Source: Methanocellales archaeon
Lineage (GTDB): Archaea > Halobacteriota > JAWCLZ01
Assembly (NCBI GenBank): GCA_038850285.1
Contig: JAWCMA010000001.1
Location: 27,880-91,879 of the forward strand
DNA: 64,000 bases
Direction: 5' to 3'
The notes beneath the pieces were generated by a model. It was not told the origin of the DNA. It was given only the letters and a program-made list of their open reading frames with translations, and made no database searches. Numbering within the stretch: the stretch's first letter is position 1; every line of letters begins with the position of its first letter. Below, one piece after another: positions 8,721-59,019 of the stretch. The translations under genes and the position numbers were made by a program.

Positions 8721-8888
8721 GCAAACACCAGAATCTATTGATTAGCCATTGATCTTGATATACATCCATATAAATTAATTGATTTTTTTCAAATAGCAAG
8801 CCTTAATTAAACTATGAATAAAATCGATTCAAAAAGAAAATTGTATAAGCGTTGCGGTTAATTGATAAAAACTTGGGAGCGTTTATTG

Positions 8889-9947
8889 ATGACTGAAAAA
8901 AAGATACTCTATGCTGATTTGACTAAGAATAGCTTGAGTGTAAAAGTGGAGAAAATCGAGGCAATAGGCGGAGCTGCATTGGCATCGAGATTATTAAAGC
9001 AAGATTCATTGATATTTGCAACAGGAGTATTCTCAGGAACCCTTATACCTGCGGGAAGCGTTGTAGGTGTTTTCTCTCCAAATGGAGAGCATTACTTCCC
9101 AGGTAATTTTGGCACTCAAATGAGGCTAGCTGGTTTAGATGCCATTGTAATCAGCGGTAGAGCTGAGAGGCCAGTTGCACTTTGGATAGATGATGATGGC
9201 ATTGATATAGAGCGTGCTGATAAACTCTGGGGCCTAGATTGCTATGAAACAGTTGAGAGAATTTTAAAGGATGCAAATGACCCTACAATTGGAGTAGCAG
9301 TGATAGGCCCGGCTGGCGAGGAGCAGGTTAAATTTGCAAGCATTTACTGCGATGACCAGCTTGATATAAGTGGACTTGGCTATGCAATGGGCGCTAAACT
9401 TTTGAAAGCAGTTATTGTGAGGGGATCGAATGATGTTAAAGTAGCGCATGGAGATGATTTGATAAAGGCTATTTCAAAGAAAGAAGTGCCAAGTAAAATC
9501 AGAAAGGATTTAATTGCTAAAAAACTTCCCAAGAATAGCTCTTGCTTGCAGTGTAATATTGCATGTCGAGAGGTATTCAAGGCAAATGGATCGATAACAG
9601 CCATATTCCCAGAGGAAGCTGAAGCATTCAACGGGTACAAGGCTGAAGAAGTGATTGAAGCAATTGCTCTATGCAAGCGACTTGGACTTAATCCAATTTA
9701 CACTGGCGCTCTAGCTAGGGCAGTGAAGGCTGAGAAACTGAGTGAATTCATAAAGAGCCTTGCTGTTAAATCAGAAGCAGAAAAGGCGATAAAGGCAGTT
9801 AACATAAAAATAGAAAAACCATTGCCTGGAAAACTTGATAAATTATTTAATTCTCTAATGATATGCAAGCGCGCACCTTATGATGGAGACGAGCTTGCAA
9901 AGCTATACAAATTTGTGACTGGCGAAACGATGCCAAGGGAAGGGTGA
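8889..9947 (+). CDS. Truncated aldehyde:ferredoxin oxidoreductase-like protein: AOR domain 1 plus a CxxCxxxC motif, with the tungstopterin-binding domains missing (BamB-like position)
   Basis: The likely start is MTEKKILYADL at 8889; the ORF-track start at 8862 is a TTG. Residues 1-200 align with AOR domain 1 (AGLDAIVISGRAERPVALWI, IGPAGEEQVKFASI, GAKLLKAVIVRGS). The motif CLQCNIAC resembles the AOR [4Fe-4S] ligand motif. The protein is only about 350 aa, against about 600 aa for a full AOR. Confidence 0.65.
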   Translation: MTEKKILYADLTKNSLSVKVEKIEAIGGAALASRLLKQDSLIFATGVFSGTLIPAGSVVGVFSPNGEHYFPGNFGTQMRLAGLDAIVISGRAERPVALWIDDDGIDIERADKLWGLDCYETVERILKDANDPTIGVAVIGPAGEEQVKFASIYCDDQLDISGLGYAMGAKLLKAVIVRGSNDVKVAHGDDLIKAISKKEVPSKIRKDLIAKKLPKNSSCLQCNIACREVFKANGSITAIFPEEAEAFNGYKAEEVIEAIALCKRLGLNPIYTGALARAVKAEKLSEFIKSLAVKSEAEKAIKAVNIKIEKPLPGKLDKLFNSLMICKRAPYDGDELAKLYKFVTGETMPREG

Positions 9948-9952
9948 TAAAT

Positions 9953-10411
9953 ATGGGGACTAAATTTTTAGCTGCAGATCCAGCGCTTTGCATTGGTTGC
10001 CACACTTGCGAGCTGGTCTGCTCATATAAAAAAGAAAATGTTTTCAATCCCAAGAAAGCGCGAATTAAAGCAGTTAGCATACCTCCGCTTACAAGTGCTC
10101 AAGCGTGCAGACTTTGCAAACCAGCACCTTGCTTGATAAAATGCCCTAGAAGAGCAATTACTCAAGATGAGAAAACTCTGGTTATAAAAATAAATGAAGA
10201 TAAATGCGATGGCTGTGGTTGGTGCGTTGAAGCTTGTGAATTTGGAGCCATGTCCATGCATCTTGATAGAAAAAAGGCATTTGTCTGCGACCTATGCGAT
10301 GGCAAGCCAGCTTGCTTGGAATTCTGCCCAACTAAAGCAATAGATTTTGTTAGCGAGGAAGAACTAGCACGGAAGGTTCAATCAGCGTTCAGTATAGTAA
10401 AGGGTGTTTAA
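9953..10411 (+). CDS. Four-cluster [4Fe-4S] ferredoxin (BamC-like position)
   Basis: Motifs CIGCHTCELVC, CRLCKPAPCLIKCP, CDGCGWCVEACEF and CDLCDGKPACLEFCP. The start is an ATG at 9953, overlapping the upstream stop. Confidence 0.75.
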   Translation: MGTKFLAADPALCIGCHTCELVCSYKKENVFNPKKARIKAVSIPPLTSAQACRLCKPAPCLIKCPRRAITQDEKTLVIKINEDKCDGCGWCVEACEFGAMSMHLDRKKAFVCDLCDGKPACLEFCPTKAIDFVSEEELARKVQSAFSIVKGV

Positions 10412-10413
10412 CA

Positions 10414-11556
10414 TTGATCTCTAGGGAATTTATTAAAAAGATCTCAGCTATCCCAGGCGGCGAGCAAGCAAAGATGTGCTATAAATGTGCTGAGTGTACT
10501 TCAGTTTGCCCAGTTGCAAAGGAAACCAACTATGAGTTCAAGCCCCATGTCTTGATGGGGATGATCAACTACGGCTTAAAAGACTTAATACTCCCGTATC
10601 TCTGGTACTGCATAACTTGTGGTAAATGTACAGTGCTATGCCCTCAAGGTATTAATATTCAAGAAGTGGTTAGAAGCGCTAGGACTCAAGCAGTCCAGGT
10701 ACCATATGCCCATAAGGGTATCTTTCACACCATGCATAGAATAATGGCTAGAGGAAAGGCTCCTGATAGAACAAAATGGTTTGAAGAAGCTGGGATTGAT
10801 TTAAATAAAAAAGGAGACAAGCTTTTTTTCGTGAGCTGCATTCCACTGTATGAGCTGTTCTTCACGGATTTGAACTTCGATGCAAAGGAAATGGTGAGAA
10901 GCAGTGTGAAGATCTTGGAAAAATTGAATATAAACTATCAAATATTTGCTGATGAACGCTGCTGCGGTCACGATGTTTTTTGGGCTGGTGACTTTGAAAC
11001 ATTCAAGGAATTTGCAAATGTAAATGCAAAGCTATTCAAGGAACGTGGAGTGAAGGAGATAATTACATTTTGCCCAGAGTGCTATCGAACTTTTCTTTTA
11101 GATTATCCAAGGGTAATAAAGGGCTTTGACATAAAAGTTAAACATATCACTGAAGTAATAGCAGAAGGCATAAATAGCGGTAAAATCGAAATCGCTAGGT
11201 CTAACGAAATACTCACTTATCAAGATCCCTGCCGCCTCGGCAGGCATTGTGGTATTTACGATTCTCCAAGGATTATTATGGAGAAGCTTGGTAAATTTGT
11301 TGAGATGAAGAATACCAAGGAAAAAGCAGACTGCTGTGGGATAAGTGCTTGGCTTAGCTGCGAGCCTGAGACCAAGATATATAGGGAGCAGCGGTTGAGG
11401 GAAGCGAGGGAAACAGGTGCGCAAACATTGGTTACTGCTTGCCCCCACTGCTTGATTCATTTCTCTTGTTCAATCTGCGAGGACCAAAAGATACCAGTGC
11501 AGCATAACATCAAAGTTAAAGATATAGTTACACTTGTAGGGAGGCAGATGAAATGA
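10414..11556 (+). CDS. HdrD-like Fe-S protein: two [4Fe-4S] motifs plus two CCG domains (BamD-like position)
   Basis: 380 aa. The N-terminus has CAECTSVCP and CITCGKCTVLCP. The CCG signatures are ERCCGHDVFW...FCPECY and DPCRLGRHCG...DCCGISAW...CPHC. The TTG start is uncertain. Confidence 0.75.
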   Translation: MISREFIKKISAIPGGEQAKMCYKCAECTSVCPVAKETNYEFKPHVLMGMINYGLKDLILPYLWYCITCGKCTVLCPQGINIQEVVRSARTQAVQVPYAHKGIFHTMHRIMARGKAPDRTKWFEEAGIDLNKKGDKLFFVSCIPLYELFFTDLNFDAKEMVRSSVKILEKLNINYQIFADERCCGHDVFWAGDFETFKEFANVNAKLFKERGVKEIITFCPECYRTFLLDYPRVIKGFDIKVKHITEVIAEGINSGKIEIARSNEILTYQDPCRLGRHCGIYDSPRIIMEKLGKFVEMKNTKEKADCCGISAWLSCEPETKIYREQRLREARETGAQTLVTACPHCLIHFSCSICEDQKIPVQHNIKVKDIVTLVGRQMK

Positions 11557-14516
11557 AGGGATCGGTATTAGTTATAGGTGGAGGCATAGCTGGAATGGTT
11601 GCCTCTTTAGACCTAGCTGACATTGGCTATAAAGTTTATTTAGTCGAGAAACTCCCGAGCATAGGCGGGAGGATGGCTCAGCTTGATAAAACCATGCCCA
11701 CGCTAGATTGCTCAATGTGCATTGAAGCACCTAGAATGGTGGAGGTAGCGAGGCATCCAAATATAGAGTTGCTGACCTATGCTGAGGTGAAGCGAGTTAA
11801 AGGTAAACTTGGGGATTTCAAAGTCGAGGTAATTAAGAAGTCTCGATATGTTGATAAAACCAAATGCACTGGATGTGGCGACTGCGCTCAAGCCTGTCCA
11901 GTGGAAGTGCCAAATGAATACGATGCTAATACTAAATCGCGAAAGGCAATATATATTCCATTTCCCCAAGCTGTTCCAAATACATATACCATTGATATGA
12001 AGCACTGCATCAAATGCTTCAAATGCGTTGAAGCATGTGGAGATAGAATGGCAATTGATTTTACAATGCAGGATGAGATAGTGGAGTTAAACGTTGGTGC
12101 TATAATCGTAGCCACTGGATTTGATATGTACGATCCCTCGGTGCTGCGCAATTATGGCTATGGGGTCTTGGAAAATGTATTAACAGGACTGGAATATGAG
12201 CGCCTATTAAATGCTGCAGGTCCAACTGAGGGGGTTATCTTAAGGCAAGATGGCAAGCATCCTAAGCATATTGCATTCATTCAATGCGTTGGAAGTAGGG
12301 ATAGCAAGCACAAGAAATACTGCTCGCGCTTCTGCTGCGTTTACGCTGTGAAGGAAGCAATTTTAACTAAGGAACACGATCCTGAGGCTAAATGCACAAT
12401 ATTTTACATGGACATGAGAGCTCATGGAAAAGGACAGGAAGAGTTCTACAGGCGTGCAAAAGAGGAATTTGGCATTGAGTTTATCAGGAGCAAGCCCGCG
12501 TATATAGAGCAAATTGGGGATAAACTGCGAATTACTTACGAGGACACTAGTTCAAGTGAAGTTAGAACAATGGAAGTTGACATGGTTGTGTTGGCTAACG
12601 CAATAGTACCAAGCGTACCAACCTCGCTTAACATCGAAGTAGATGCAGATGGCTTTATCTCAGAGAAACTCGGAGATCCCTCGACCACGAATATCCCAGG
12701 GATATATGCAGCTGGAGTTTCACAAGCGCCAAGAGATATATCTGATTCAGTTGCAATGGGCAGCGCAGCAGCTGGTAAGGTATCTGCGGATTTGAGAGAA
12801 GCCAGAGGTACTGAGGTAGTGAAAAAAATACTACCGCCTGAGAGAGATGTAACTCGTGAACCACTTAGGATTGGCGTTTTCCTATGTCACTGCGGTATAA
12901 ACATCGCTGGCGTCGTTGATATGAAAGCACTTGAGGAATACTCTAGAACTCTACCTAATGTTGTATTTGTCCAACGTAATCTCTACACCTGCTCTGAAGA
13001 GGGCAATCGCCAGATTAGGGATGCCATTAAAGAATATAATTTGAATCGCGTTGTAGTAGCAGCTTGCACTCCGCGAACTCATGAAGCACTCTTTAGGGAA
13101 ACATGCATGCAAGCTGGATTGAATCCCTATTTACTTGAATTCGCAAGCACTAGAGAAATGTGTTCTTGGGTGCATATGCGCCAGCCTAAGGAGGCAACTG
13201 AGAAGGCTAAGGATATAGTGAGAATGGCAGTCGCTAGAGCAGCTTTGCTTGAGCCTCAGAAGCCAGGTGTAATTCCAGTCACGCCAAAGGTAGTGATAAT
13301 CGGCGGTGGCATAGCTGGCATGCAAGCAGCCTTGGGATGCGCGAGAAATGGTTTTCAAACCTATCTCATTGAGAAAAGCGCTGAACTCGGTGGAATGCTG
13401 GCTAAGCTTCGCTCTATGGTTCCCACTTATCTTGATCCAAGGGAAATTGTGAGGGAGAAAATTGCAGCAGTGAGGCAAAATCCATTGATAAAAGTTTATA
13501 CCAATACCGAGGTCAAGAATATCTCTGGCTTCATAGGAAACTTCATAGTGGAACTCTCAAATGGCGAAAAAATTGAAGCTGGGGCTATAGTGGTTGCCAC
13601 AGGTGGAAAGGAGTGGAAGCCTGATGTATATGACTATGGCAAAAATCCAAATGTTATGACCCAGCTTGAGTTTGAAGAAGCTCTTTTAAAGGGAGAAATA
13701 AAGCCAGGTGAGAGAATTGTTATGATACAATGCGTGGGATCTAGAGATGAAAAAAGGCCTTATTGCTCGAGGATTTGCTGCGGCGTTGCAGTTAAAAATG
13801 CTCTAGAGCTCAAAAAGCGATATCCTGAGAACCCAGTTTATATATTATATAATGATATGCGAACCCACGCTAAGGGAACGGAGGAACTATATCTAGAAGC
13901 TCGGGAGAAGGGAGTGGAATTTATTAGATTTGAACTTGAGAATAGACCAACTGTTAGAGGCAATAAGGTAACGGTCTTTGATAGTTTCCTGCAAACCGAG
14001 TTTGATATACCAGCGGATAAGATAGTGCTATCCAGCGCTATAGTGCCTGATGAAAATGCACCTCAGCTTGCGAAGATGCTTAAAGTGCCTCTTGATGTTA
14101 ATGGCTTCTTCCTTGAGGCTCACCTCAAACTCAGACCTGTTGACTTCGCCACTGATGGAATATTCGTAGCTGGTGTAGCACAGAGTCCAAAGGAGTATTA
14201 TGATTCAATTTCACAGGCAGATGCAGTGGTGGCTAGAGTGGCTAGATTACTAGCTAAGCCTGAGTTTGAAACAGAAGCTATTACTTCTATAGCTATGGAG
14301 GAACTCTGCATTGGCTGTGCTCGCTGCGTTGCATGCTGCCCATATACAGCTATTACCATGGTGATGAAGAACGGGAGATATGTTTCAAGTGTTAATCAAG
14401 CCCTCTGCAAAGGCTGCGGTACTTGCGTGGCTGAATGTCCAACTGGTGCTATGAAGGCAAGGCACTTCACCACTGAGCAGATTACAAAAATGATAGATGC
14501 AGCATTGGAGGAGTGA
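11553..14516 (+). CDS. Tandem (double-FAD-domain) HdrA-like flavoprotein (BamE-like position)
   Basis: 987 aa. Order: FAD domain 1 (VIGGGIAGMVAS) with an inserted ferredoxin, then an internal HdrA N-terminal-type 4-Cys domain (VFLCHCGINIAG), then FAD domain 2 (IIGGGIAGMQAA), then a C-terminal 2×[4Fe-4S] (CIGCARCVACCP..CKGCGTCVAECP). Its start is an ATGA overlap with the upstream gene. Confidence 0.85.
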   Translation: MKGSVLVIGGGIAGMVASLDLADIGYKVYLVEKLPSIGGRMAQLDKTMPTLDCSMCIEAPRMVEVARHPNIELLTYAEVKRVKGKLGDFKVEVIKKSRYVDKTKCTGCGDCAQACPVEVPNEYDANTKSRKAIYIPFPQAVPNTYTIDMKHCIKCFKCVEACGDRMAIDFTMQDEIVELNVGAIIVATGFDMYDPSVLRNYGYGVLENVLTGLEYERLLNAAGPTEGVILRQDGKHPKHIAFIQCVGSRDSKHKKYCSRFCCVYAVKEAILTKEHDPEAKCTIFYMDMRAHGKGQEEFYRRAKEEFGIEFIRSKPAYIEQIGDKLRITYEDTSSSEVRTMEVDMVVLANAIVPSVPTSLNIEVDADGFISEKLGDPSTTNIPGIYAAGVSQAPRDISDSVAMGSAAAGKVSADLREARGTEVVKKILPPERDVTREPLRIGVFLCHCGINIAGVVDMKALEEYSRTLPNVVFVQRNLYTCSEEGNRQIRDAIKEYNLNRVVVAACTPRTHEALFRETCMQAGLNPYLLEFASTREMCSWVHMRQPKEATEKAKDIVRMAVARAALLEPQKPGVIPVTPKVVIIGGGIAGMQAALGCARNGFQTYLIEKSAELGGMLAKLRSMVPTYLDPREIVREKIAAVRQNPLIKVYTNTEVKNISGFIGNFIVELSNGEKIEAGAIVVATGGKEWKPDVYDYGKNPNVMTQLEFEEALLKGEIKPGERIVMIQCVGSRDEKRPYCSRICCGVAVKNALELKKRYPENPVYILYNDMRTHAKGTEELYLEAREKGVEFIRFELENRPTVRGNKVTVFDSFLQTEFDIPADKIVLSSAIVPDENAPQLAKMLKVPLDVNGFFLEAHLKLRPVDFATDGIFVAGVAQSPKEYYDSISQADAVVARVARLLAKPEFETEAITSIAMEELCIGCARCVACCPYTAITMVMKNGRYVSSVNQALCKGCGTCVAECPTGAMKARHFTTEQITKMIDAALEE

Positions 14517-14519
14517 GAA

Positions 14520-14939
14520 ATGAGGGAGCCGAAGATAATTGGATTGCTGTGTAACTGGTGTTCCTATGCAGGTGCGGATCTTGCTGGGGTAAGTAGATTT
14601 CAATATCCCCCTAATATACGCGTGATCAGAGTAATGTGCACGGGTAGGGTTGATCCCTATTTCGTGATCCATGCATTTGAGAGGGGCGCTGATGGCGTTC
14701 TAGTAAGTGGCTGCCACATTGGCGATTGTCACTATTTAAAGGGCAATGAATTCATGGTTCAGCGCATGGAAAACCTCGCAAAGGCATTGCCTATGATAGG
14801 TATAAATCCAAAGCGCTTCATGTATACCTTCGTCTCAGCTGCAGAGGGCAAGCGCTTCTCTGAAGTTGTAACTCAATTCGTAAAGCAAGTGAAGGAAGCC
14901 ATGCTTGAGGATGAAAAAGCTAGGGCAGCGGGTTCATGA
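14520..14939 (+). CDS. mvhD: MvhD-like [2Fe-2S] protein (methyl-viologen-reducing hydrogenase delta subunit family; BamF-like position)
   Basis: 139 aa with the motif IIGLLCNWCSYAGADLAGVS..VIRVMCTGRVD..SGCHIGDCHY. Confidence 0.85.
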   Translation: MREPKIIGLLCNWCSYAGADLAGVSRFQYPPNIRVIRVMCTGRVDPYFVIHAFERGADGVLVSGCHIGDCHYLKGNEFMVQRMENLAKALPMIGINPKRFMYTFVSAAEGKRFSEVVTQFVKQVKEAMLEDEKARAAGS

Positions 14940-17375: not shown

Positions 17376-17426
17376 TGTAATATATCTATTCCTGTGTTAT
17401 TATGGAATATCTATTCCTGTGTTATT

Positions 17427-18098
17427 ATGGAAAAATCAGAAAAAAATTATAATCTATATCCCCTGTTATTTTCCCTTTGGATGATGGATCTCCATATTCA
17501 CTCCTCCCTCTCGGATGGCAAAGCAGGGATATATGAAATACTAGAGGAAGCGGAGAGGAAAAAGCTAAGCCTAATTGCAATAACAGATCACGGCCCTGGA
17601 CACGTTTGCGGAGCCACTAATAGAGAGCTGAGAAAGCTAGCTAGAGAACTCAAAGCAATTAGAAATTCCTATAGAGTAAAAGTGTTAATTGGTGTTGAAG
17701 CGGAGATTGACGAAGATGGATCAACAAATTTAGATGAAGATATAGATTTTGATGTCATACTGGCCTCGATACATAGAGCTGTGGGTGTAGAAGACTACTT
17801 CACGCGACTAAAACTCGCGCTTGCTAAATCTAGAATCGATGTACTTGCCCACCACGGCTTATATCTACCTCAAATAGATGCTAGTTTAAATCAAGAATTA
17901 GTTGAAATACTCAAGGAGAAAAAAGTGGCAGTTGAGATAAATTCATTTCACAGACTCCCTGACCTTGATTTCCTAGCCATGTGCGCTAGAGCTGGGTTGA
18001 AATATACCATTGGCAGCGATGCACATTCACTTGAGAGAATAGGCGATGTAGCTTGGGGGGAGAAAATTGGCAAGAAAATCTTTGAGGATTTGAAATGA
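17427..18098 (+). CDS. PHP-domain phosphoesterase
   Basis: DLHIHSSLSDG and ITDHG PHP motifs. The ORF track starts at a GTG at 17394; an ATG lies at 17427, and the true start may be MMDLHIHS at about 17481. Confidence 0.7.
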   Translation: MEKSEKNYNLYPLLFSLWMMDLHIHSSLSDGKAGIYEILEEAERKKLSLIAITDHGPGHVCGATNRELRKLARELKAIRNSYRVKVLIGVEAEIDEDGSTNLDEDIDFDVILASIHRAVGVEDYFTRLKLALAKSRIDVLAHHGLYLPQIDASLNQELVEILKEKKVAVEINSFHRLPDLDFLAMCARAGLKYTIGSDAHSLERIGDVAWGEKIGKKIFEDLK

Positions 18099-18517
18099 AG
18101 GTAAAATACCCTAGATTAACAGTCGACGTGGTAATTCTATATAGAAATAAATTTGTATTCATCAAGCGGGGAAATGAGCCATACAGGGGTAGATATGCCC
18201 TTCCAGGCGGCTTCGTTGAAGCTGGGGAGAGAGTGGAAGAAGCAGCTATTCGCGAGGCGAGAGAAGAAACTGGCCTTGATATTAGACTTATAAAACTTTT
18301 AGGGGTATACTCCGATCCAGATCGCGATCCACGCGGCCACGTGGTTAGCATTTGCTATCTAGCTGAAGGCACTGGAGAACTTAAACCAAGCACTGATGCT
18401 TGCGAGGTTTTGACTTGCTCTCTTGATGCTGCTATGAAGTTAAACCTCGCGTTTGACCACGATAAAATTTTGAGAGACGCCATAGCTGAGCTTCGTAGAA
18501 TAGGGAAATATTTTTAA
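18095..18517 (+). CDS. NUDIX hydrolase
   Basis: Nudix box GGFVEAGERVEEAAIREAREETGL. Confidence 0.85.
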   Translation: MKVKYPRLTVDVVILYRNKFVFIKRGNEPYRGRYALPGGFVEAGERVEEAAIREAREETGLDIRLIKLLGVYSDPDRDPRGHVVSICYLAEGTGELKPSTDACEVLTCSLDAAMKLNLAFDHDKILRDAIAELRRIGKYF

Positions 18518-50158: not shown

Positions 50159-50644
50159 ATGAAACAGCTCTGGGCTCCTTGGCGAATGAAATACATAAAA
50201 TCTAAAAAAAAGCAGAAATGCTTCCTCTGCCTTGAGTCAAAAAAGGATGAAGAACTAGTGATATATAAAGGTGAGAAGTGCTTCGTTATCTTAAATGCCT
50301 ATCCCTATAACAATGGACATATCATGATAGCTCCCTATCGACATATCTTGAGGCTTCAGGACTTAAGTGAGGAGGAAACTCGAGAGTTCTTCGATCTAAC
50401 TAAGCAAAGCTTGGCAGTTTTGGATCAAACGATGAAGCCAGAGGGCTACAATATCGGCATCAACTTAGGTAAAGCAGCTGGAGCTGGAGAGGCACATTTG
50501 CACCTCCACGTAGTACCAAGGTGGGTAGGTGATACAAACTTCATGCCCATCTTAGCAGATGTCAAGGTAATGCCTGAGCATCTAGATCGAAACTGCAAAA
50601 TATTGAGAAGGGCATTTAAGAAGCATGGCACTGGAAGTATTTGA
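50159..50644 (+). CDS. HIT-family hydrolase
   Basis: Histidine triad HLHLHVVPR. Confidence 0.75.
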   Translation: MKQLWAPWRMKYIKSKKKQKCFLCLESKKDEELVIYKGEKCFVILNAYPYNNGHIMIAPYRHILRLQDLSEEETREFFDLTKQSLAVLDQTMKPEGYNIGINLGKAAGAGEAHLHLHVVPRWVGDTNFMPILADVKVMPEHLDRNCKILRRAFKKHGTGSI

Positions 50645-52160: not shown

Positions 52161-53783
52161 CTATAGCTTTTTAACTACCCTCTCTATAACTTCACTTGGG
52201 CTGATTGCTTCAAGTGTTCTAGCTGTTATATCCTCTAGCATGACCTCAATTGCCAATTTAAGGGCTTGCTCATCCACATATAAAATTCGATGTGCATTTG
52301 TCTCTCTACTTCTAGCTGAGAAATAAAAGGGAAGCGTCAGGGCAGAGGCAAGCTGAAGGCATTTATATATAGCGCGTGGAGAAGCGTGCACTAATTGATC
52401 TTCTTCCACGAATTCCTTTACGAAGATTTTAAGGCTCAAGGTAACTCTCTTGATTTGATCCTCTAGGAACTGTATCTTAGCTGGCTTGTATTTCCACATC
52501 CCAGTGTTTATGGCATAGATCAAGGTTACGTGGTCTCTAATTAGCTTTGGAGTTATCTCTTCATATCTACCTACACCTAAAGCGTGTCTCTCAATTGACT
52601 CCACTATAGAGAGGAATCTATCCTTGGTCATGCGGTGCAAGCGGCAGAAGCAGCGGTCTTCAATTGCACGGAAATTTGGATCAGGCACGGTTAATCTATA
52701 GCCCCTTCTCTCTACTTTTACATTGTAATTTGCATTCAAGAAGGAGGTGAAAACATATGGTCCAATTGTTTCATGCGCTGATTCATATTTCAATGGCTTT
52801 TGCTCCATCGCGAGTTTGAGTCTCTCCACCATTCCACGTTCATGGAAGAACCACTCATTGAACTCCGGGACTAAGAAGACCATTTTCTTGCCTTCGTAGT
52901 ACTGCCCCATTTGGAGAAACATATATGGAGTTATGCCCCCGCAGTATCTATATCTCCCAGGTATGCCATGTGGCTCGAGCTGGAGTTTTTCATTGCCCAT
53001 CACAAAATCTATACTGGAATAAGTTTTTCCAGTTCCAATATCCCCGAAGAAAGCAAGGTGAAAGCCTGTACTTGTGAGGCGCTCGCCATTTGGCTTGAGT
53101 ACTTCCACATCTGCAATTCCAAATAACTGGCTCCATGAGAGGAGTACGTCTATAGCTGCCACCCCACCATATTCCTCGCAGTATCTATAAATCGAGGTCA
53201 AGTCAATTTGCTTCGCGAATTCAATAACTTTCTCTTCATCAATTTCCTTGAGATAATTCTTCAAGCACGAGTCCATTTTTTTGACCAATATCTGCTCGCT
53301 GGGCTTGGTCTCTTCTTTTATAGTGGTCTTGGTTTTTCTTCTTATGTACTCCATGAGGTGCTTTGCATTTGGCACTATGTATCGAGCGAAGTGATGTTTA
53401 TAGCTCTCCACCGGGCGGATTTGAATTTGATAGGATTCTTCTTTTTCATGGAGAGCAATGAAGAAGTAATGCTCATAGGTATGCAGCAAGCTTGAAATTG
53501 CATCTTTAATTAACTTTTCATCCGCATAAGTTTTGTCAGCTTCAATCACAATTCCATCAGGTGCTATTTCTATTACATCTCGAATTATCTCTCTCCCAAT
53601 TGCCATTCTAGCATTTCTCACTAGTTCTTCCCATTCTTCTCTACCGAAGAGGAAGGTGCCAGCTTCATCGTTTATGCTACGAGTCGCTAGTTCCTCTGCA
53701 GTAAAAATGCCTATGCTATTGAGATCTTTCATTCGCTTTCTACCTATTCCAGAGATTTCAAGCAGCTCCATTTCGAGGATCAC
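52161..53783 (-). CDS. Uncharacterised protein: an N-terminal helix-hairpin-helix motif plus a central P-loop NTPase domain
   Basis: 540 aa. The N-terminus ELLEISGIGRKRMKDLNSIGIFTAEELA is HhH and RadA-N-like. The Walker A FFGDIGTGKTYS sits at about residue 250. The gene lies co-directionally downstream of the DNA ligase. Confidence 0.5.
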   Translation of the reverse strand: MILEMELLEISGIGRKRMKDLNSIGIFTAEELATRSINDEAGTFLFGREEWEELVRNARMAIGREIIRDVIEIAPDGIVIEADKTYADEKLIKDAISSLLHTYEHYFFIALHEKEESYQIQIRPVESYKHHFARYIVPNAKHLMEYIRRKTKTTIKEETKPSEQILVKKMDSCLKNYLKEIDEEKVIEFAKQIDLTSIYRYCEEYGGVAAIDVLLSWSQLFGIADVEVLKPNGERLTSTGFHLAFFGDIGTGKTYSSIDFVMGNEKLQLEPHGIPGRYRYCGGITPYMFLQMGQYYEGKKMVFLVPEFNEWFFHERGMVERLKLAMEQKPLKYESAHETIGPYVFTSFLNANYNVKVERRGYRLTVPDPNFRAIEDRCFCRLHRMTKDRFLSIVESIERHALGVGRYEEITPKLIRDHVTLIYAINTGMWKYKPAKIQFLEDQIKRVTLSLKIFVKEFVEEDQLVHASPRAIYKCLQLASALTLPFYFSARSRETNAHRILYVDEQALKLAIEVMLEDITARTLEAISPSEVIERVVKKL

Positions 53784-53991
53784 TATAGATTGTTTTTTGA
53801 AGATAAAAACTTTTACATAGGGGAAAAAAGAAATAAAGAAATTGGACTATGGGTTTGTGTTTAGATTGTAGAATTAAACTTGAAGCTAAACTAGCTGAGG
53901 AGGATATATTTTTTGAGTTTTTAGAGGCTTTTCAAGAGAAGCCTAAGCACGTTGGAGAGATCTGCGAATGCTGTGGAAGGCAATTCTTTGA

Positions 53992-55716
53992 TTAGCCTCT
54001 GGCTCTCTGCTGTTCATACATTTCGATGATCTCCTTCACTGTATTTGCATCTCCAGCGCTTTTATCCTGCCTTATGAATCCCACCGCGCGGGGGAAGCGC
54101 AGAGCGTAACCTATTTCTTTTTCAGTTCTCCCGCAAGTGTGAAGGGGGGAGCGGGTTATTTCATCAGCCATAACTGTTATGACGTACTTCGGTTCAACCC
54201 ATACATCTGGGATGATGAGGGAATCTACTCTAGCGTGGCGATGTGGAATTGCAATTTCATCAAGCATCCCCTTGAGTTTTACCCAGTTTTCCTCGCTGAA
54301 TCCAGATCCAACTTTTGCAATTGTCTTGAAGGTATCGCTTTCTTCATCGTAAACTGAGCATAAGATAGCTCCAATTCCAAGTTTTGCTCTAAAGCCCTTT
54401 CCCTTGAAATAGCCCACTATACAGACATCTATAGTATCAGCTAGTTCGCCTTTGTAGCTTCTCTTGAGCTTTATCCAGTTAAAATTTCGAGCACCTGCAG
54501 AATATGGAGCATCTAATCTCTTTGCAACAACTCCCTCCAGGCCTTTTTCCACGAATTCCTCGAAATAGTTTTTAATCTCCGTGGGATCGCCTGTGTAGAT
54601 CACCTTTGCAACATCTATTGGTCCATCTGATGTGATTATTTGCTCCATTTTCTCGCGGCGCTCAATATATGGCTTTTGAGTATAATCCACTCCATCCACA
54701 AATAGTAGTTCGAATGCAAAGAGCTTCAAGGGATATTCCTTGGCTAGTTCCTCCACGCCGTGTTTGCGCTTGCGTGTTATTGTAACTTGAAATGGAAAGA
54801 GCTCTCCTGTTTCTTCATTATATGCAAGGGCTTCTCCTTCTATAATTGCTTGCTTCGCTTTAATTTGCCTCTTAGCTGCTTCCACGATCTCTGGGAACAT
54901 CGCGGTGGTGCGCTCGAGATTTCTCGAGAAAATTTCCACCTTATCTCCATCTTTATGTATCTGGCATCTAAAGCCATCGTATTTAGGTTCAATCGCAGCT
55001 TTACCTATCTTTTGAACTATATCCTCGGATGAGGGGAGGCGCTCGCAAAGTGCCATTCTAATTGGGGAGAAAACCTTTATTTTGAATTCCCTTATTCCCT
55101 TTTCTCCCTTCTCAAAGAGGGTTTTAGCTACTAGTCCTAGGTCTGAGCATAGGTTATATGCTCGCTCAAGTTCAGGTCGAAATTTTCTAGTTCCAGCTTT
55201 AGCTTGTGCTAGAGCGTCTAATATGGTTGGATCTCCTATTCCAAGTCTTAGCCTTCCTGCTACGAATCTAGCGATATATTTTGATTCAATGGGTGAAGCA
55301 TTGGAAAATAAATTAGCTAGAATTGTTATCTTTTTCTCAACGCTTCCTTCACCAGTTGTTAGAGCCACTTTTAAAAGTCGGTCGTAAACCTCGCTTACCT
55401 CCAACTCTGAGCCTTTGCTTCTGGAAAATTTCTCAGCTACGATTCCCAAGTCACCTGCATTCTTGAATTCCTCCTCAACCCTCTGGAGAGTTACTCCAGC
55501 TGATTGAGAAATCGCTCGAATAAGCAATTTCTCGCTAACCCCCATTTCAACTCCGCGAAATGGAGGTAGAATTTGCTCTTGACATAGATATATTATCTTC
55601 TCAATTTCATTGCTATCCGCTTTCTTGAAAAGCTCAGCTAGAATATTGAACATCTCTAGCCTCTTTGTAGTTGCCTCGAGTTTTTCAAAGTAACTTGCTA
55701 GCTCTGAAAATTTCAT
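53992..55716 (-). CDS. lig: ATP-dependent DNA ligase (replicative Lig1-type)
   Basis: Adenylation motif I EPKYDGFRCQIH, plus DNA-binding and OB domains; 574 aa. Confidence 0.9.
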   Translation of the reverse strand: MKFSELASYFEKLEATTKRLEMFNILAELFKKADSNEIEKIIYLCQEQILPPFRGVEMGVSEKLLIRAISQSAGVTLQRVEEEFKNAGDLGIVAEKFSRSKGSELEVSEVYDRLLKVALTTGEGSVEKKITILANLFSNASPIESKYIARFVAGRLRLGIGDPTILDALAQAKAGTRKFRPELERAYNLCSDLGLVAKTLFEKGEKGIREFKIKVFSPIRMALCERLPSSEDIVQKIGKAAIEPKYDGFRCQIHKDGDKVEIFSRNLERTTAMFPEIVEAAKRQIKAKQAIIEGEALAYNEETGELFPFQVTITRKRKHGVEELAKEYPLKLFAFELLFVDGVDYTQKPYIERREKMEQIITSDGPIDVAKVIYTGDPTEIKNYFEEFVEKGLEGVVAKRLDAPYSAGARNFNWIKLKRSYKGELADTIDVCIVGYFKGKGFRAKLGIGAILCSVYDEESDTFKTIAKVGSGFSEENWVKLKGMLDEIAIPHRHARVDSLIIPDVWVEPKYVITVMADEITRSPLHTCGRTEKEIGYALRFPRAVGFIRQDKSAGDANTVKEIIEMYEQQRARG

Positions 55717-55778
55717 TCACACCACATGGGATATCTTTTATAATCACGTCTAATAATTCTAATGGTGTAATCACAAGT

Positions 55779-56957
55779 ATGGCAAGCATCGAAGACCGAG
55801 TCCTTCTACTACTTTCAATCAAAGAGCCTGGGAAGAAAATCGATTTTGAGCATATAAGGGAAAAGATAGTTAGAGATGAGAAATCAAGGGATAAATCAAG
55901 GGATAAATCAAGGGATAAATCAAGGGATAGAGATACGATAGAGGATACAATAGAGAATGCAGCAGGTGGTTTAGTTAATGAATTGAAGAAGTGCCTTGAA
56001 ACTCTAGCGAGGCAGGGGTTAATTAAGGAAGAAAGAGGCAGCTATGCTATAACTGAGAAAGGGGAAAGGAGAATTCTAGAGCGGTTAAAGCAAGTGGGCG
56101 GGGATTTGAATCTATCCTATCGCTTGGTCTTGAAGGCCAAGAAATACTATCCAGTTATTGGAGAAGCAATGCTTCCATTCCTCAGGGATAGAGCTGTTAG
56201 TGTGATCAAAGTTTTCAGCGATGAAGTTGAGCCGTTGAGTAAAATAAAGCCACTCTTCGTTAGATATGCTCGCTATAAACCTATTCCAGTTTTCATAGAG
56301 ATCAAAGACCTTGAGACTTTATTGAGATACGTTGACCAACACGCCATTGATTTCATACCATATGTTCACAGACTTCAAGCTAGAGAGCCTGACTGGTTCA
56401 TCCTTGATCTCGACGCGGGTGAAGAACTTCAAAAGCACCCTATGAGTTTTGAGCTGATTAAAAATGTGGCTCAAAAGGCAGTTGAGGTACTAGAGGAAAA
56501 TGAAATCGAGCCTTGCATAAAATTTAGCGGCTCGAGAGGGATTCAAATCTGGGCAAAGTTTGATAATAGCAAGCTTCAAAGCGAGGGGGATTTATTTGCA
56601 GTTTATAGAAGACTTGCTGTGACTGTGCAGCAAAAAACTGAGCAAAAACTTCAGAAGGAGTTTAAAAACTTGATCAACCCCAACAAGCCAATTACCACTT
56701 CCCAAGTTGCTAAGAAAGAAGAAAGAGCTGATCAAATTTTGATAGACTGGAGCTCTATGAAGCCAAATGGAGATGTTAGAGCGCCCTTCAGCATGCACTA
56801 TAAAACTGCTTTAATCTCAACTCCTATACCTAAATCACATCTCCTTGAATTTGAAATTCAAGAAGCTCAGCCTGAGTATGTGATGAGAAATCTAGCTAAA
56901 TTAACCTCCGCCTTTGAACTTAGAGCTTCTAATCCGACTAAGCTGCTGAGGAATTGA
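55779..56957 (+). CDS. LigD-type polymerase/primase domain (AEP superfamily PolDom) with an N-terminal wHTH-like region and a KSRD×4 low-complexity linker
   Basis: The three PolDom motifs are read directly: WFILDLDAGEE (DxD), IKFSGSRGIQIWAKF (SGxRG) and ILIDWSSMKPNGDVRAPFSMH (IDWS...APFS). The ATG at 55779 was chosen; the ORF track's upstream extension overlaps the ligase start. Confidence 0.8.
   Translation: MASIEDRVLLLLSIKEPGKKIDFEHIREKIVRDEKSRDKSRDKSRDKSRDRDTIEDTIENAAGGLVNELKKCLETLARQGLIKEERGSYAITEKGERRILERLKQVGGDLNLSYRLVLKAKKYYPVIGEAMLPFLRDRAVSVIKVFSDEVEPLSKIKPLFVRYARYKPIPVFIEIKDLETLLRYVDQHAIDFIPYVHRLQAREPDWFILDLDAGEELQKHPMSFELIKNVAQKAVEVLEENEIEPCIKFSGSRGIQIWAKFDNSKLQSEGDLFAVYRRLAVTVQQKTEQKLQKEFKNLINPNKPITTSQVAKKEERADQILIDWSSMKPNGDVRAPFSMHYKTALISTPIPKSHLLEFEIQEAQPEYVMRNLAKLTSAFELRASNPTKLLRN
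55881..55928. repeat. 4 × 12-bp in-frame tandem repeat AAATCAAGGGAT encoding (KSRD)4
   Basis: Read directly within the PolDom gene. Confidence 0.9.
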
Positions 56958-56958
56958 A

Positions 56959-58197
56959 ATGAGGATATATAGCTTAAGCAGTAGCAATAGATGTGTCTTC
57001 TGCAAGGGATCTAAATTCCTCTGCGGCAAAGAGCGATGTCCCATTCTTGTGAAGCTATATGCGCAGCAGCAAACTAAGCCATTGATCGATTCCCTGAGTT
57101 TAGAGGGCTCCTCACCCCCTGGGGTTTTCATTGGTAGAATTGGCTATCCCTATGTTTCAATAGGTCCTTTAGTTCCACCTATCCAAGGTGATACTTTTCT
57201 ATTAGATACCCCTGAGCTCTGGGTGGGCAAGAGCATAGATGAAATAGTGAATTTCAGATTCCAGCTCGTTAGAGGGAAATATAGAGTGAATGTGAGAAAC
57301 GTTGAGGGTGAAAGGATAGTTGAGGCTACTCGAGAACTCGCTATGGCTTTAAACCCAGCTGATGTGGAGGTTGAGTTTCATAAAAAACCCCGGGTAGAAA
57401 TAGCGCTTGATGATGAAGTGCAGCCTCACGGCCCGAGTGCACCTTTGAAGAAGATTGATGTAAATTCAATTAAAATAGACAGGAGAATTGAAAAAGCATA
57501 TAGCGATACTGATTTAAAGGCAAGTGAAGCGGTTTTGAATCTCTATAGAAGTGGAGTGTTGATATCCAAAATACAGCGTGCCTTCAGCGCAGGCGTATTA
57601 GGGGAGAAAAAAGCTAGGCGATTTGTGCCAACTAGGTGGAGCATCACCGCGGTTGATAGCATTATCTCAAGTACATTGATGGAAAGAGTTAAAGCAAATC
57701 CCTTGATAAATGAATTCCAAATTTATGAATCAATCTCACTTGATAATAGATTCATCGTGATCCTCATGCCATTTTCTTGGAGCTATGAATTAATTGAAGC
57801 TTGGTATCCAAATACAATTTGGAACCCAACTGGTAGAGAAACTGTGATATTCTCTGACCACGAGGGCTTCTCAGGGAGAACCACTTACGCGAAAATTGGA
57901 GGATGCTATTACGCCGCGAGACTAGCTGTTTGCGAATATCTTGAAAAAATAGGGAGGCAAGCTAGAGTATTAATTCTTCGGGAAGCGCATCCTGGCTATA
58001 TAATGCCAGTTGGCGTGTGGAATGTGCGGGAGAGTGTAAGAAATGCTCTTCGAAGCGCACCTCATAGGTTTAGCAGTTTGAGGGAGGTATTCAATTATAT
58101 CACAGCCAAGCTCTGCATACCTATTCAAAAGTGGCTGCTTCATAGTACGCTACTCAAGCAGCTGCTCCATCAAAGGACTCTTGAGGATTATACTTAG
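56959..58197 (+). CDS. nreA: NreA-like archaeal DNA-repair protein (DUF650/DUF651 architecture)
   Basis: 412 aa with an N-terminal Cys cluster CVFCKGSKFLCGKERCP. It lies in a ligase neighbourhood, as nreA typically does. Confidence 0.45.
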   Translation: MRIYSLSSSNRCVFCKGSKFLCGKERCPILVKLYAQQQTKPLIDSLSLEGSSPPGVFIGRIGYPYVSIGPLVPPIQGDTFLLDTPELWVGKSIDEIVNFRFQLVRGKYRVNVRNVEGERIVEATRELAMALNPADVEVEFHKKPRVEIALDDEVQPHGPSAPLKKIDVNSIKIDRRIEKAYSDTDLKASEAVLNLYRSGVLISKIQRAFSAGVLGEKKARRFVPTRWSITAVDSIISSTLMERVKANPLINEFQIYESISLDNRFIVILMPFSWSYELIEAWYPNTIWNPTGRETVIFSDHEGFSGRTTYAKIGGCYYAARLAVCEYLEKIGRQARVLILREAHPGYIMPVGVWNVRESVRNALRSAPHRFSSLREVFNYITAKLCIPIQKWLLHSTLLKQLLHQRTLEDYT

Positions 58198-58206
58198 AGG
58201 GGAAAT

Positions 58207-59019
58207 ATGCAAGTGAGAATTAGGGAGATAAAATGTAAAACTGCACTCTCTCCCTCTCTTTTACCTGGCTATGACTATGCTTTAAATCCATATAGAGGCT
58301 GCGAGCATGCTTGCATATACTGCTATTCCCCCTCAGTGCTTAGATGCAGGGAAAAATGGGGGACATTTGTAGAGCCAAAGGTGAATATAGCTCGCGTACT
58401 ATCTCGAGAGCTAAGGGATAAGCCAAAGGGAGTTGTTGGAATAAGCAGTGTCACTGATCCCTATCAGCCTCTGGAGAGGAAATATGAGCTGACAAGGAGA
58501 TGCTTGGAATTACTTTTGAAGTATAATTTTCCCATCTCAATTCAAACCAAATCAGCATTAGTAATGCGAGACCTAGATTTGATCAAGCAGTTTTCTAATA
58601 AAGACGTTGGGTTAACAATCACCACCATTGAAGATGAATTGCGGAGGAAATATGAACCCATTGCGAGTAGCGTGAAAGAGCGATTGCTTGCTTTGAGAAA
58701 GATAGCTGAGTGTGGAATCACCAGCTGGGTCTTTATTGGTCCCATAATGCCATTTATAAGCGATAGAAATGGCTCTCTTGAAGAGCTGCTTAGAGCAATT
58801 GCAGATTCAGGGGTGAGCTACATCTTAATCGATAAATTGAGAATGAAGCCAGGGATCTGGGATAATATTGAAAAATTCCTCGTTGATTATGATGCAACAT
58901 TGATTCCTAGTTACAAGGAGATATTATTCAAGCGGGATGATAGTTACTTTATTAATGTGAGGCGTAGAGTAATGGAGCTATGCAAGCAGCTAGGTTTGAA
59001 GTGCGAGTCTTGCTTTTAG
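58207..59019 (+). CDS. Radical SAM protein of the spore-photoproduct-lyase / DNA-photolyase-like family (COG1533-like)
   Basis: CEHACIYC CxxxCxxC motif near the N-terminus; 270 aa; sits 9 nt after nreA. Confidence 0.6.
   Translation: MQVRIREIKCKTALSPSLLPGYDYALNPYRGCEHACIYCYSPSVLRCREKWGTFVEPKVNIARVLSRELRDKPKGVVGISSVTDPYQPLERKYELTRRCLELLLKYNFPISIQTKSALVMRDLDLIKQFSNKDVGLTITTIEDELRRKYEPIASSVKERLLALRKIAECGITSWVFIGPIMPFISDRNGSLEELLRAIADSGVSYILIDKLRMKPGIWDNIEKFLVDYDATLIPSYKEILFKRDDSYFINVRRRVMELCKQLGLKCESCF

Follow-up and report, generated by a model that had tools for sequence, protein, structure and literature searches.

We found that a cluster of five genes in a 64-kb archaeal window (the whole stretch of DNA analysed) combines separately recurring links, namely a DNA ligase with a winged-helix (wHTH) PolDom polymerase and an Nre-family gene with a SplB-like radical-SAM (rSAM) gene, which are here brought side by side. 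By analogy with mycobacterial Prim-PolC, we hypothesize that this arrangement may serve Ku-independent filling and sealing of short gaps during excision repair, linked here to Nre and the SplB-like enzyme, a reading to which we give about an even chance. The layout of polymerase, ligase, Nre and rSAM genes goes beyond the published NreB-SplB pair.

All five open reading frames lie where an earlier reading of the window, made from the sequence alone, had placed them (Table 1), and the 62-nt divergent spacer that it described between the ligase and polymerase genes is likewise present. The ATPase and ligase genes are separated by 208 nt, while only 1 nt separates the polymerase gene from the Nre gene and 9 nt separate the latter from the rSAM gene. 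By this spacing the polymerase, Nre and rSAM genes form a tight operon, for which co-transcription is implied. The spacer holds an A/T-rich TTTTATAA element, read directly from the sequence at 55736-55743, that lies 36 nt from the polymerase ATG and 20 nt from the ligase ATG and could be a candidate TATA box in either direction; the ligase gene and the polymerase operon may thus be co-regulated from this spacer.

Table 1. Features of the gene cluster, in window positions
Feature	Position	Strand	Basis
HhH-domain / MCM-fold AAA+ ATPase gene	52161..53783	-	profile match, motif, structure model
Three-domain ATP-dependent DNA ligase gene	53992..55716	-	Pfam, NCBIfam, structure-sequence matches
Divergent spacer, 62 nt, ligase ATG to polymerase ATG	55717..55778	.	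sequence
Winged-helix + AEP polymerase gene, first of three-gene operon	55779..56957	+	PF21686, motifs, model
Tandem repeats within winged-helix coding region	55881..55955	+	TRF
Nre-family gene	56959..58197	+	Nre_N, Nre_C
SplB-like radical-SAM gene	58207..59019	+	Radical_SAM, Cys motif

The polymerase, whose start codon was set by aligning homologues, belongs to a small uncharacterised archaeal family in which a winged helix is fused to a stand-alone AEP of the LigD/Prim-PolC fold. Besides the N-terminal winged helix, it matches LigD_Prim-Pol (PF21686) at 82 bits, above the gathering threshold of 27.4. The residues DLD (210-212), SGSRGxQ (250-256) and D323 are invariant and align with LigD motifs I-III, and the catalytic Asp residues are unchanged throughout 27 family members; in motif II the canonical His is replaced by Gln, as it also is in a Bacillus-type LigD. 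Foldseek searches with the structure model (pLDDT 92.6) gave as best matches Prim-PolC (5op0/6sa0), the Methanocella paludicola NHEJ polymerase (5dmu) and the PolDoms of M. tuberculosis (2iru) and P. aeruginosa (2fao), all of the same fold (E ~1e-10 to 1e-8, target-normalised TM 0.61-0.69; 0.62-0.69 for the NHEJ polymerase and PolDoms). These structures surpass primases by about five orders of magnitude, with PriS as a second tier. The ligD_pol equivalog model, however, scores 69 bits against a cutoff of 214.7, which together with E = 5e-6 against PDB PolDoms rules out a canonical LigD PolDom orthologue. The proposed LigD-type AEP is accordingly upheld for fold, motifs I and III and PF21686, but not for orthology.

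The ligase is a DBD-adenylation-OB ATP-dependent enzyme of the Lig1/replicative type, in agreement with the sequence-only reading. It matches TIGR00574 at 470 bits (cutoff 218) as well as the Pfam families DNA_ligase_A_N, _M and _C, carries the KYDG motif at residue 245, and aligns colinearly from end to end with the enzymes of S. solfataricus (2hiv, 494 bits) and P. furiosus (2cfm, 370 bits) and with human LIG1. Among its closest relatives outside the lineage, at 63-70% identity, are ligases of Nitrospirota and Thermoflexus whose gene surroundings are truly bacterial.

The second gene of the operon encodes, by its domains, an Nre-family archaeal DNA-repair factor (Nre_N 346 bits, Nre_C 144 bits), with an N-terminal Cys4 (C12/C15/C22/C27) that is invariant in our alignment (A3) and, read directly from the sequence, a C-terminal PIP-like peptide, QRTLEDYT (for the PIP consensus and Nre biology, see PMC4929162). 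The product of the gene 9 nt downstream is a predicted SplB-like radical-SAM enzyme resembling PA0069 and Rv2578c. It contains the CxxxCxxC motif as CEHACIYC (residues 32-39), matches Radical_SAM at 57 bits, and has its best NCBIfam matches, all below cutoff, to PA0069 (162 bits), Rv2578c (149 bits) and mobile-pair B (146 bits). With 26 bits for TIGR04070 (cutoff 400), it is no true spore photoproduct lyase; hence radical SAM stands, whereas “photolyase-like”, as it had been called, was overstated, the nearest families being the uncharacterised PA0069 and Rv2578c.

Among 80 Nre loci, 30 have a SplB-like rSAM homologue within 1.6 kb, consistent with the published NreB-SplB gene adjacency (Giroux & MacNeill 2016, reviewed in PMC4929162), with which the window pair shares the Nre_N/Nre_C architecture, the Cys4, the PIP-like C-terminus and the side-by-side placing of the two genes. 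The window pair differs in that a PolDom-family polymerase precedes it in the same operon and a ligase gene lies on the opposite side, an arrangement of which the review (PMC4929162) makes no mention. In none of the 80 Nre loci did we find a ligase within the fetched flanks, or the wHTH-PolDom polymerase. The expectation that nreA often lies next to a ligase gene is thus not borne out; the recurrent partner of Nre is the SplB-like rSAM gene.

Next, we consider the neighbours of the polymerase family, whose loci fall into about 35 synteny classes, counted by eye and without correction for kinship. Recurrent repair neighbours in these classes are the ligase, endonuclease V (EndoV), an Nth-like glycosylase, an EndoIV-like protein and Nre, and among 131 immediate neighbours in 80 genomes EndoV is the commonest Pfam family (12), with 6 cases of HhH-GPD and 4 of DNA ligase. 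The ligase adjoins the polymerase in four arrangements: the two genes are divergent in the window and its near relative L001 and again in L004/L048, an EndoIV-like gene separates the divergent pair in L167, and in L064 they overlap and run in the same direction. About 0.1 such adjacency is expected by chance, given ~0.002-0.003 per class of falling no more than two genes away from a single-copy gene, a comparison that shares the by-eye count and ignores kinship. Nre is adjacent to the polymerase, or one gene off, in three classes (window/L001, L002 and L168), and Methanosuratincola loci have a stand-alone LigD 3'-phosphoesterase (PE) and a photolyase 1.4-3 kb downstream. About 25 of the classes have transporters, HAD, DJ-1, SRP54 and similar genes instead of a repair neighbour.

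Because both recur in unrelated lineages, the PolDom-ligase and Nre-rSAM pairings exceed chance. The same does not hold for the five-gene unit, since the only other genome with the full arrangement is L001, whose synteny with the window extends for more than 12 kb and takes in unrelated genes; SplB-like rSAM and ATPase genes alongside the polymerase are also confined to L001. Neighbourhood conservation therefore supports the two pairs, and not the single module of five genes that had been proposed.

Collectively, the neighbour spectrum of EndoV, Nth-like glycosylase and EndoIV-like protein points to excision repair rather than end joining. Mycobacterial Prim-PolC is a stand-alone LigD-like AEP, operonic with LigC, that fills gaps of 1-3 nt with a 5'-phosphate in base excision repair (BER) without Ku (PMC5663958, PMC7442782). 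Prim-PolC is the best structural match of the archaeal enzyme, and both systems combine such a polymerase with an ATP-dependent ligase encoded alongside, BER genes nearby (FPG in mycobacteria) and a context devoid of Ku. They differ in that the polymerases share only 18-19% identity, the archaeal one has an added winged helix and Gln rather than His in motif II, and Prim-PolC Loop 3 and the 5'-phosphate pocket (N20/K23/Y25/K35) are not recognisable in its sequence. Furthermore, LigC is a two-domain enzyme, and the window system is archaeal and additionally tied to Nre and an rSAM enzyme. As the partner ligase is of the three-domain replicative type and not a dedicated LigC-like enzyme, the adjacency might reflect something besides a dedicated complex.

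Under the gap-filling hypothesis, a lesion would be incised or removed, with BER-type nucleases and glycosylases as candidates, and here perhaps Nre and the rSAM enzyme acting upstream of the polymerase on some adduct or crosslink. The wHTH-PolDom enzyme would then bind and fill the resulting short gap, presumably 5'-phosphorylated, and the Lig1-type ligase would seal the nick. The cluster proteins may be physically coupled, and PCNA could offer a platform for sealing via the PIP-like tail of Nre.

The sequence-only reading had left end joining and gap filling side by side as Ku-independent roles; gap filling linked to the ligase is the better supported by the Prim-PolC match and the four ligase arrangements. 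End joining, whether NHEJ or microhomology-mediated, would cast polymerase and ligase as a split LigD, as in Methanocella, with Ku encoded elsewhere or replaced by the winged helix. In structure, the Methanocella enzyme and LigD PolDoms match the model no less well than Prim-PolC. The nearest MAGs carry the label Methanocellales, and the only characterised archaeal NHEJ system comes from that order; a stand-alone LigD phosphoesterase also lies near the Methanosuratincola homologue. Nevertheless, we consider end joining improbable. The polymerase is no orthologue of the Methanocella one (profile E-value 0.004, 22% identity), is unfused to ligase or PE domains, and has a distinct C-terminal RAPFSxHxKTG motif common to its family and PriS; its neighbours are BER-type enzymes and not end-binding factors. 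As had been noted before, no Ku or phosphoesterase gene was detected in the window: a single bacterial Ku and a single LigD PE domain, used as tblastn queries, had no match, and neither Pfam Ku nor LigD_N was found in the genes of the cluster, in three ORFs flanking it or in 40 others (107-914 aa), a scan that left out ~17 larger ORFs. A Ku gene may sit elsewhere in the genome, beyond these 64 kb, but a single-sequence search found none within 10 kb of 83 polymerase homologues, and the family is widespread (for example in Nitrososphaeria, Hadarchaeota and Methanomethylicia), while Ku is reportedly missing from most archaea.

A mostly coincidental juxtaposition, with the cell's replicative ligase placed by lineage-specific rearrangement beside a polymerase, Nre/rSAM and ATPase of unrelated processes, is unlikely, though somewhat less so than end joining. 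It would fit the restriction of the full cluster to L001 and its long synteny, the lack of a ligase at most polymerase loci and all Nre loci, and the location of ATPase homologues elsewhere in other genomes. Against it stand the repeated ligase adjacency, involving ligases only 45-47% identical to that of the window, the prevalence of repair enzymes as the commonest neighbour theme, and the operon spacing. Fusions of wHTH and AEP domains are typical of plasmid and viral Prim-Pols, and the polymerase could instead be a primase or re-priming enzyme, or the replication initiator of an integrated mobile element whose winged helix recognises an origin. This would suit the JGI label “DNA primase/predicted transcriptional regulator” on homologues, the likeness to PriS in structure and C-terminal motif, and one homologue that lies directly beside cas6 and type I cas genes. 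We regard it as very unlikely: the flanks of the polymerase gene, in the window and in the loci examined, hold no genes of mobile elements such as helicase or integrase genes, its surroundings are stably syntenic on the chromosome within lineages, and primases trail far behind in the structural comparison.

The remaining gene encodes an HhH protein whose AAA+ ATPase core has a highly divergent MCM fold, which refines the HhH-plus-P-loop NTPase described before. It has a Walker A motif (GDIGTGKT, residue 247), and the HhH match is weak (HHH_5, 22 bits, below cutoff); the AlphaFold model has a mean pLDDT of 75, and translation probably begins at the ATG at 53771. Compared with MCM helicases (12-14% identity), it has no Pfam MCM match, carries HhH in place of the N-terminal OB/Zn domain, and has PEFN rather than DEFD as Walker B. 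The family comprises 74 archaeal clusters and has no Pfam model, and the HhH N-terminus is limited to this clade. Only in this lineage is the gene a neighbour of the ligase, with no ligase near a 61%-identical homologue or a Thermofilum homologue; its place in the repair cluster is doubtful, and it is probably a lineage-specific bystander. Finally, the in-frame tandem repeats in the polymerase gene (one 12-nt unit repeated 4.1 times with 100% identity, another of 12 nt repeated 2.6 times) encode a KSRD x4 / DTIE insertion that is missing from 26/26 aligned homologues, is unique to the source genome and is modelled at a pLDDT of ~57.

We found the five open reading frames of the cluster exactly where the sequence-only reading had placed them in the window. 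Because of the gaps of 1 nt and 9 nt that separate them, the polymerase, Nre and radical-SAM genes are almost certainly read as one transcript. The polymerase starts at the ATG at 55779 and not at an upstream TTG, as the aligned homologues open with MASIEDR. The spacer of the divergent ligase-polymerase pair contains TTTTATAA at 55736-55743, which could be an archaeal TATA box for transcription towards either gene.

Genes of the cluster, with their position in the window, product length and spacing
Gene	Position	Strand	Product	Spacing
HhH/MCM-like ATPase	52161-53783	minus	540 aa	208 nt downstream of the ligase
DNA ligase	53992-55716	minus	574 aa	
Polymerase	55779-56957	plus	392 aa	62 nt from the ligase ATG
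Nre	56959-58197	plus	412 aa	1 nt after the polymerase
Radical-SAM gene	58207-59019	plus	270 aa	9 nt after Nre

The polymerase scores 82.2 bits against the Pfam model LigD_Prim-Pol (PF21686, cutoff 27.4), and only 69 bits against the NCBIfam equivalog ligD_pol (TIGR02778), below the cutoff of 214.7. It carries an added N-terminal winged helix (HTH_45, 24.5 bits) that is modelled as helices with a beta-hairpin. When PDB structures were compared with the AlphaFold model (pLDDT 92.6), M. smegmatis Prim-PolC, the Methanocella NHEJ polymerase and the LigD PolDoms of Mtb and Pae matched best, at E values of about 1e-10 to 1e-8, and the primase small subunits five orders of magnitude more weakly. Sequence identity to Prim-PolC is 18-19%.

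Of the PolDom motifs that had been read from the sequence, I and III hold up in the alignment. Motif I (ILDLDAG, with D210 and D212) and motif III (LIDWS, with D323) are invariant in 27 polymerase-family sequences, the former aligning with LDLDPD of Pae and the latter with IFVDYLRN of Pae and VFVDWSQN of Mtb. In motif II, which is SGSRGIQ at residues 250-256 and reads SGSRG-x-Q without exception in the 27 sequences, the Ser of the LigD pattern SGxxGxH is kept and the His is replaced by an invariant Gln256. We rejected this replacement as the sign of a dead enzyme: an annotated Bacillus-type LigD on a Cytobacillus plasmid carries the same residue (SGNKGLQ), and the Gln need not be inactivating for that reason. 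In the region of the Mtb 5'-phosphate pocket (N13/K16/K26), the N-terminal SNPDK segment is without an alignable counterpart in the polymerase; the family has an invariant N111-x-S113-Y114, and basic residues whose spacing differs.

The same architecture of winged helix and polymerase domain, at 359-440 aa, was found in metagenome-assembled genomes labelled Methanocellales, Hydrothermarchaeota, Methanomethylicia (including Methanosuratincola) and Nitrososphaeria, with further homologues in those labelled Tardisphaera-like Thermoproteati, Njordarchaeota and Hadarchaeota. The family is small: a search of 1.84 billion representatives gave only 28 clusters at E <= 1e-30; in the same search a second tier consists of polymerases of about 260 aa that lack the winged helix, and canonical LigDs are matched at about 1e-11 to 1e-13. 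On the basis of these tiers, the motif alignment and the order of the structure matches, the polymerase family is a distinct branch inside the PolDom clade, separate from the orthologues of LigD and of the Methanocella NHEJ polymerase. In the literature that we searched, we found no description of such a compact archaeal family.

Two in-frame repeats lie in the winged-helix coding segment at 55881-55955 of the window, a perfect tandem repeat of the 12-nt unit AAATCAAGGGAT in 4.1 copies and a second 12-nt repeat in 2.6 copies. They insert KSRDKSRDKSRDKSRD...DTIEDTIE into the protein, a stretch missing from 26 of the 26 aligned homologues, and the repeats seem to have expanded recently, in frame, within a low-confidence loop. 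At the other end of the polymerase (window 56935-56957), the alignment shows a kept peptide S-D/N-P-x-x-L after the catalytic domain, in which P386 and L389 are nearly invariant. The peptide is non-canonical as a PIP box and is a candidate short linear motif for binding a partner.

To place the cluster in its genomic context, flanks of up to 10 kb per side were taken for 80 genomic homologues of the polymerase and of 6 kb for three more, with crude gene calling in the fetched loci. The full set of five genes was found in a single other locus, L001, from a close relative with synteny throughout, and the proposal of a conserved five-gene module accordingly falls away. As the proteins of L001 are 75-91% identical to those of the window and the synteny runs well past the cluster, this locus is uninformative on selection. 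The five-gene cluster is a lineage-specific arrangement and no new system by itself.

Smaller parts of the cluster recur more widely. Across the 83 loci the ligase adjoins the polymerase in four different arrangements. The two genes diverge across a short spacer in the window lineage and, as a separate case, in two Hydrothermarchaeota genomes (L004 and L048); they diverge around an EndoIV-like TIM-barrel gene in one locus (L167); and they are co-directional with an 8-nt overlap in L064, a member of a divergent Hadarchaeota-like subfamily. The ligases beside the polymerase homologues elsewhere are of the dnl1 type and 45-47% identical to that of the window. About 0.1 ligase adjacencies would be expected by chance, a rough estimate that ignores phylogeny. 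In an unbiased Pfam count over the 131 immediate neighbours of the polymerase, Endonuclease V is the commonest single family (12, mainly in Hadarchaeota); HhH-GPD/Nth-like glycosylases number 6 (in Methanomethylicia) and DNA ligase 4; an EndoIV-like protein occurs once among the homologue loci. Nre is divergent from the polymerase in one locus (L002) and one gene off in another (L168). Other neighbours are lineage-specific transporters, HAD, DJ-1 and the like, and the polymerase stands beside a DNA-repair gene in about 10 of about 35 synteny classes. In one locus from a 'Methanobacteriota archaeon' (L166, 6001-7859), the polymerase homologue P0007 overlaps cas6 by 4 nt and the locus continues into type I cas genes (DevR/Cas7, Cas5d and Cas3), a linkage that could be fortuitous or could mean that the polymerase family has a CRISPR-associated use.

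Previous studies have described the mycobacterial Prim-PolC/LigC pair, in which base-excision repair (BER) enzymes leave 5'-phosphorylated gaps of 1-3 nt, a stand-alone PolDom-like enzyme fills these and the neighbouring ligase closes them, independently of Ku (PMC5663958, PMC7442782). The window polymerase is similarly a stand-alone PolDom-like enzyme beside an ATP-dependent ligase. The association with BER enzymes is also shared, seen here from gene neighbours alone (EndoV, Nth-like and EndoIV-like), whereas the partner ligase in the window is a three-domain dnl1. By this analogy, the best-supported reading is that polymerase and ligase would form an archaeal counterpart of Prim-PolC/LigC. 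We consider the family a testable candidate for that role in lineages without Ku, because the polymerase is repeatedly found beside ligase, EndoV, Nth-like, EndoIV-like, phosphoesterase and Nre genes.

The sequence-only reading had proposed a Ku-independent end-joining or gap-filling module, and of these two the gap-filling half is favoured. End joining is a possible function: a Ku gene may be present in another part of the genome, and the closest metagenome-assembled genomes are labelled Methanocellales. It is nevertheless disfavoured by the spectrum of neighbours and by the distribution of the polymerase family. As the earlier reading had stated, no Ku-like or phosphoesterase gene was detected in the window. 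The tblastn queries were a single bacterial Ku, of limited sensitivity, and one LigD phosphoesterase domain; Pfam was scanned for Ku and LigD_N over the five genes of the cluster, three ORFs flanking it and 40 others of 107-914 aa, leaving about 17 larger ORFs aside. Ku was likewise not found in the 83 polymerase homologue loci by tblastn with a single query of limited sensitivity, and no fusion of the polymerase to LigD ligase or phosphoesterase domains was found. A phosphoesterase gene near the polymerase is limited, among the 83 loci, to four Methanosuratincola loci (L015, L017, L041 and L042), where a stand-alone LigD 3'-phosphoesterase (PF13298, 140 bits) and then a DNA photolyase lie at 1.4-3 kb, in a stretch about 1.4-4 kb on the downstream side of the polymerase, past one or two genes that include an MFS transporter.

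The ligase has the three Lig1-type domains (DNA-binding, adenylation and OB), each recognised by Pfam, with KYDG at residue 245, and scores 470 bits against TIGR00574 (cutoff 217.8). Its whole length aligns colinearly with the ligases of S. solfataricus (2hiv) and P. furiosus (2cfm) and with human LIG1; the S. solfataricus enzyme scores 494 bits against it and euryarchaeal ligases 370 and 295 bits. Among its closest relatives beyond the lineage, at 63-70% identity, are many genes from Nitrospirota and Thermoflexus, which stand alone (loci L169 and L170), and no repair genes were found around these bacterial relatives. Since they sit in clearly bacterial gene contexts, the Lig1-type ligase clade has crossed domains. 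Furthermore, a Hydrothermarchaeaceae ligase is 67% identical to that of the window, unlike the 45-47% identical ligases that adjoin the polymerase in L004 and L048, and some lineages may for this reason carry two ligases.

Next to the polymerase, the Nre gene encodes a canonical Nre protein (Nre_N 346 bits, Nre_C 144 bits) with an invariant N-terminal Cys4 (C12, C15, C22 and C27). Compared with the PIP consensus QxxhxxAA (PMC4929162), its C-terminus QRTLEDYT matches at Q, L and one aromatic position and ends in Thr, in keeping with the 'less clear-cut' PIP of NreB in the same review. Hfx. volcanii NreA is required for the repair of mitomycin-C damage in a PIP-dependent manner and is epistatic with UvrABC; attempts at Nre biochemistry have failed, and the adjacency of NreB to SplB is already published, with its meaning unexplained (PMC4929162).

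We recovered this adjacency among the 80 best-scoring metagenomic relatives of the window Nre (58-67% identity). A SplB-like radical-SAM homologue lies within 1.6 kb of Nre in 30 of the 80 loci, directly downstream and co-directional in 19, 0.5-1.5 kb further downstream in seven and divergent upstream in four. Neither a ligase nor the polymerase was near Nre in any of these 80 loci, and the statement that nreA commonly adjoins the ligase gene finds no counterpart in this sample. NUDIX is the second commonest Nre neighbour (9/80), and in the window adjacent PHP-domain and NUDIX genes lie at 17394-18517 on the plus strand.

The radical-SAM protein has CxxxCxxC at residues 32-39. It had been read as photolyase-like, akin to spore photoproduct lyase (SPL), and it falls below the cutoffs of both SPL models (26 bits against 400 for TIGR04070, 19 bits against 27 for PF20903); we rejected a true SPL and assign the protein, as a radical-SAM enzyme with CxxxCxxC, to the wider SplB-like group. 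The families that it matches best, PA0069 and Rv2578c, are uncharacterised and are likewise matched below their cutoffs. Sequence searches of the PDB with Nre and with the radical-SAM protein returned no relatives.

The ATPase stands apart from these genes. Its N-terminus is (HhH)2-like, akin to the Rad51 N-terminal domain and NusA-AR2; it matches no Pfam model, its Walker B is PEFN, and the HhH N-terminus is found in this clade only among its 74 archaeal relatives. The MCM helicase family takes an AAA+ core with Walker A/B together with an N-terminal OB/Zn region, a combination that the ATPase does not have. We rejected it as a member of the module as unsupported: in a Methanocellales locus (L081, 61% identical) and in Thermofilum (L082) it lies away from any ligase. 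In both loci it is two genes from a DHODB_Fe-S_bind/Pyr_redox_2 (Fer4_20) pair, and the unannotated genes beside it show no homology to each other. A HIT-family hydrolase at 50159-50644 on the plus strand of the window is three genes from the ATPase/ligase pair, a position kept in L001 only. Pure coincidence of neighbours is likely for the ATPase and unlikely for the polymerase-ligase and Nre-radical-SAM pairs.

The cluster bears on two matters in archaea: the choice of polymerase for the gaps of excision repair, and the roles of Nre and SplB-like enzymes. The arrangement in the window suggests, and does not show, that the Nre/SplB-like pair, almost certainly co-transcribed with the polymerase, would act upstream of gap filling in this lineage by handling the lesion beforehand. 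A further-reaching scenario, which we consider improbable, is that the winged-helix PolDom family would be the dedicated gap filler of an unrecognised archaeal patch repair, in which PCNA-tethered Nre and the SplB-like radical-SAM enzyme would process bulky or crosslink lesions and the Lig1-type ligase would seal. If true, the window would show this pathway in its fullest genomic form and would give the first mechanistic context for Nre and the archaeal SplB-like enzymes. In practice, the analysis yields a small set of proteins for co-purification and reconstitution.

Elsewhere in the window (4939-14939), a cluster of heterodisulfide-reductase-like genes, iron-sulfur genes of the MvhD/FlpD-fusion type and an AFOR-like gene fits an archaeon of the methanogen or alkanotroph type.
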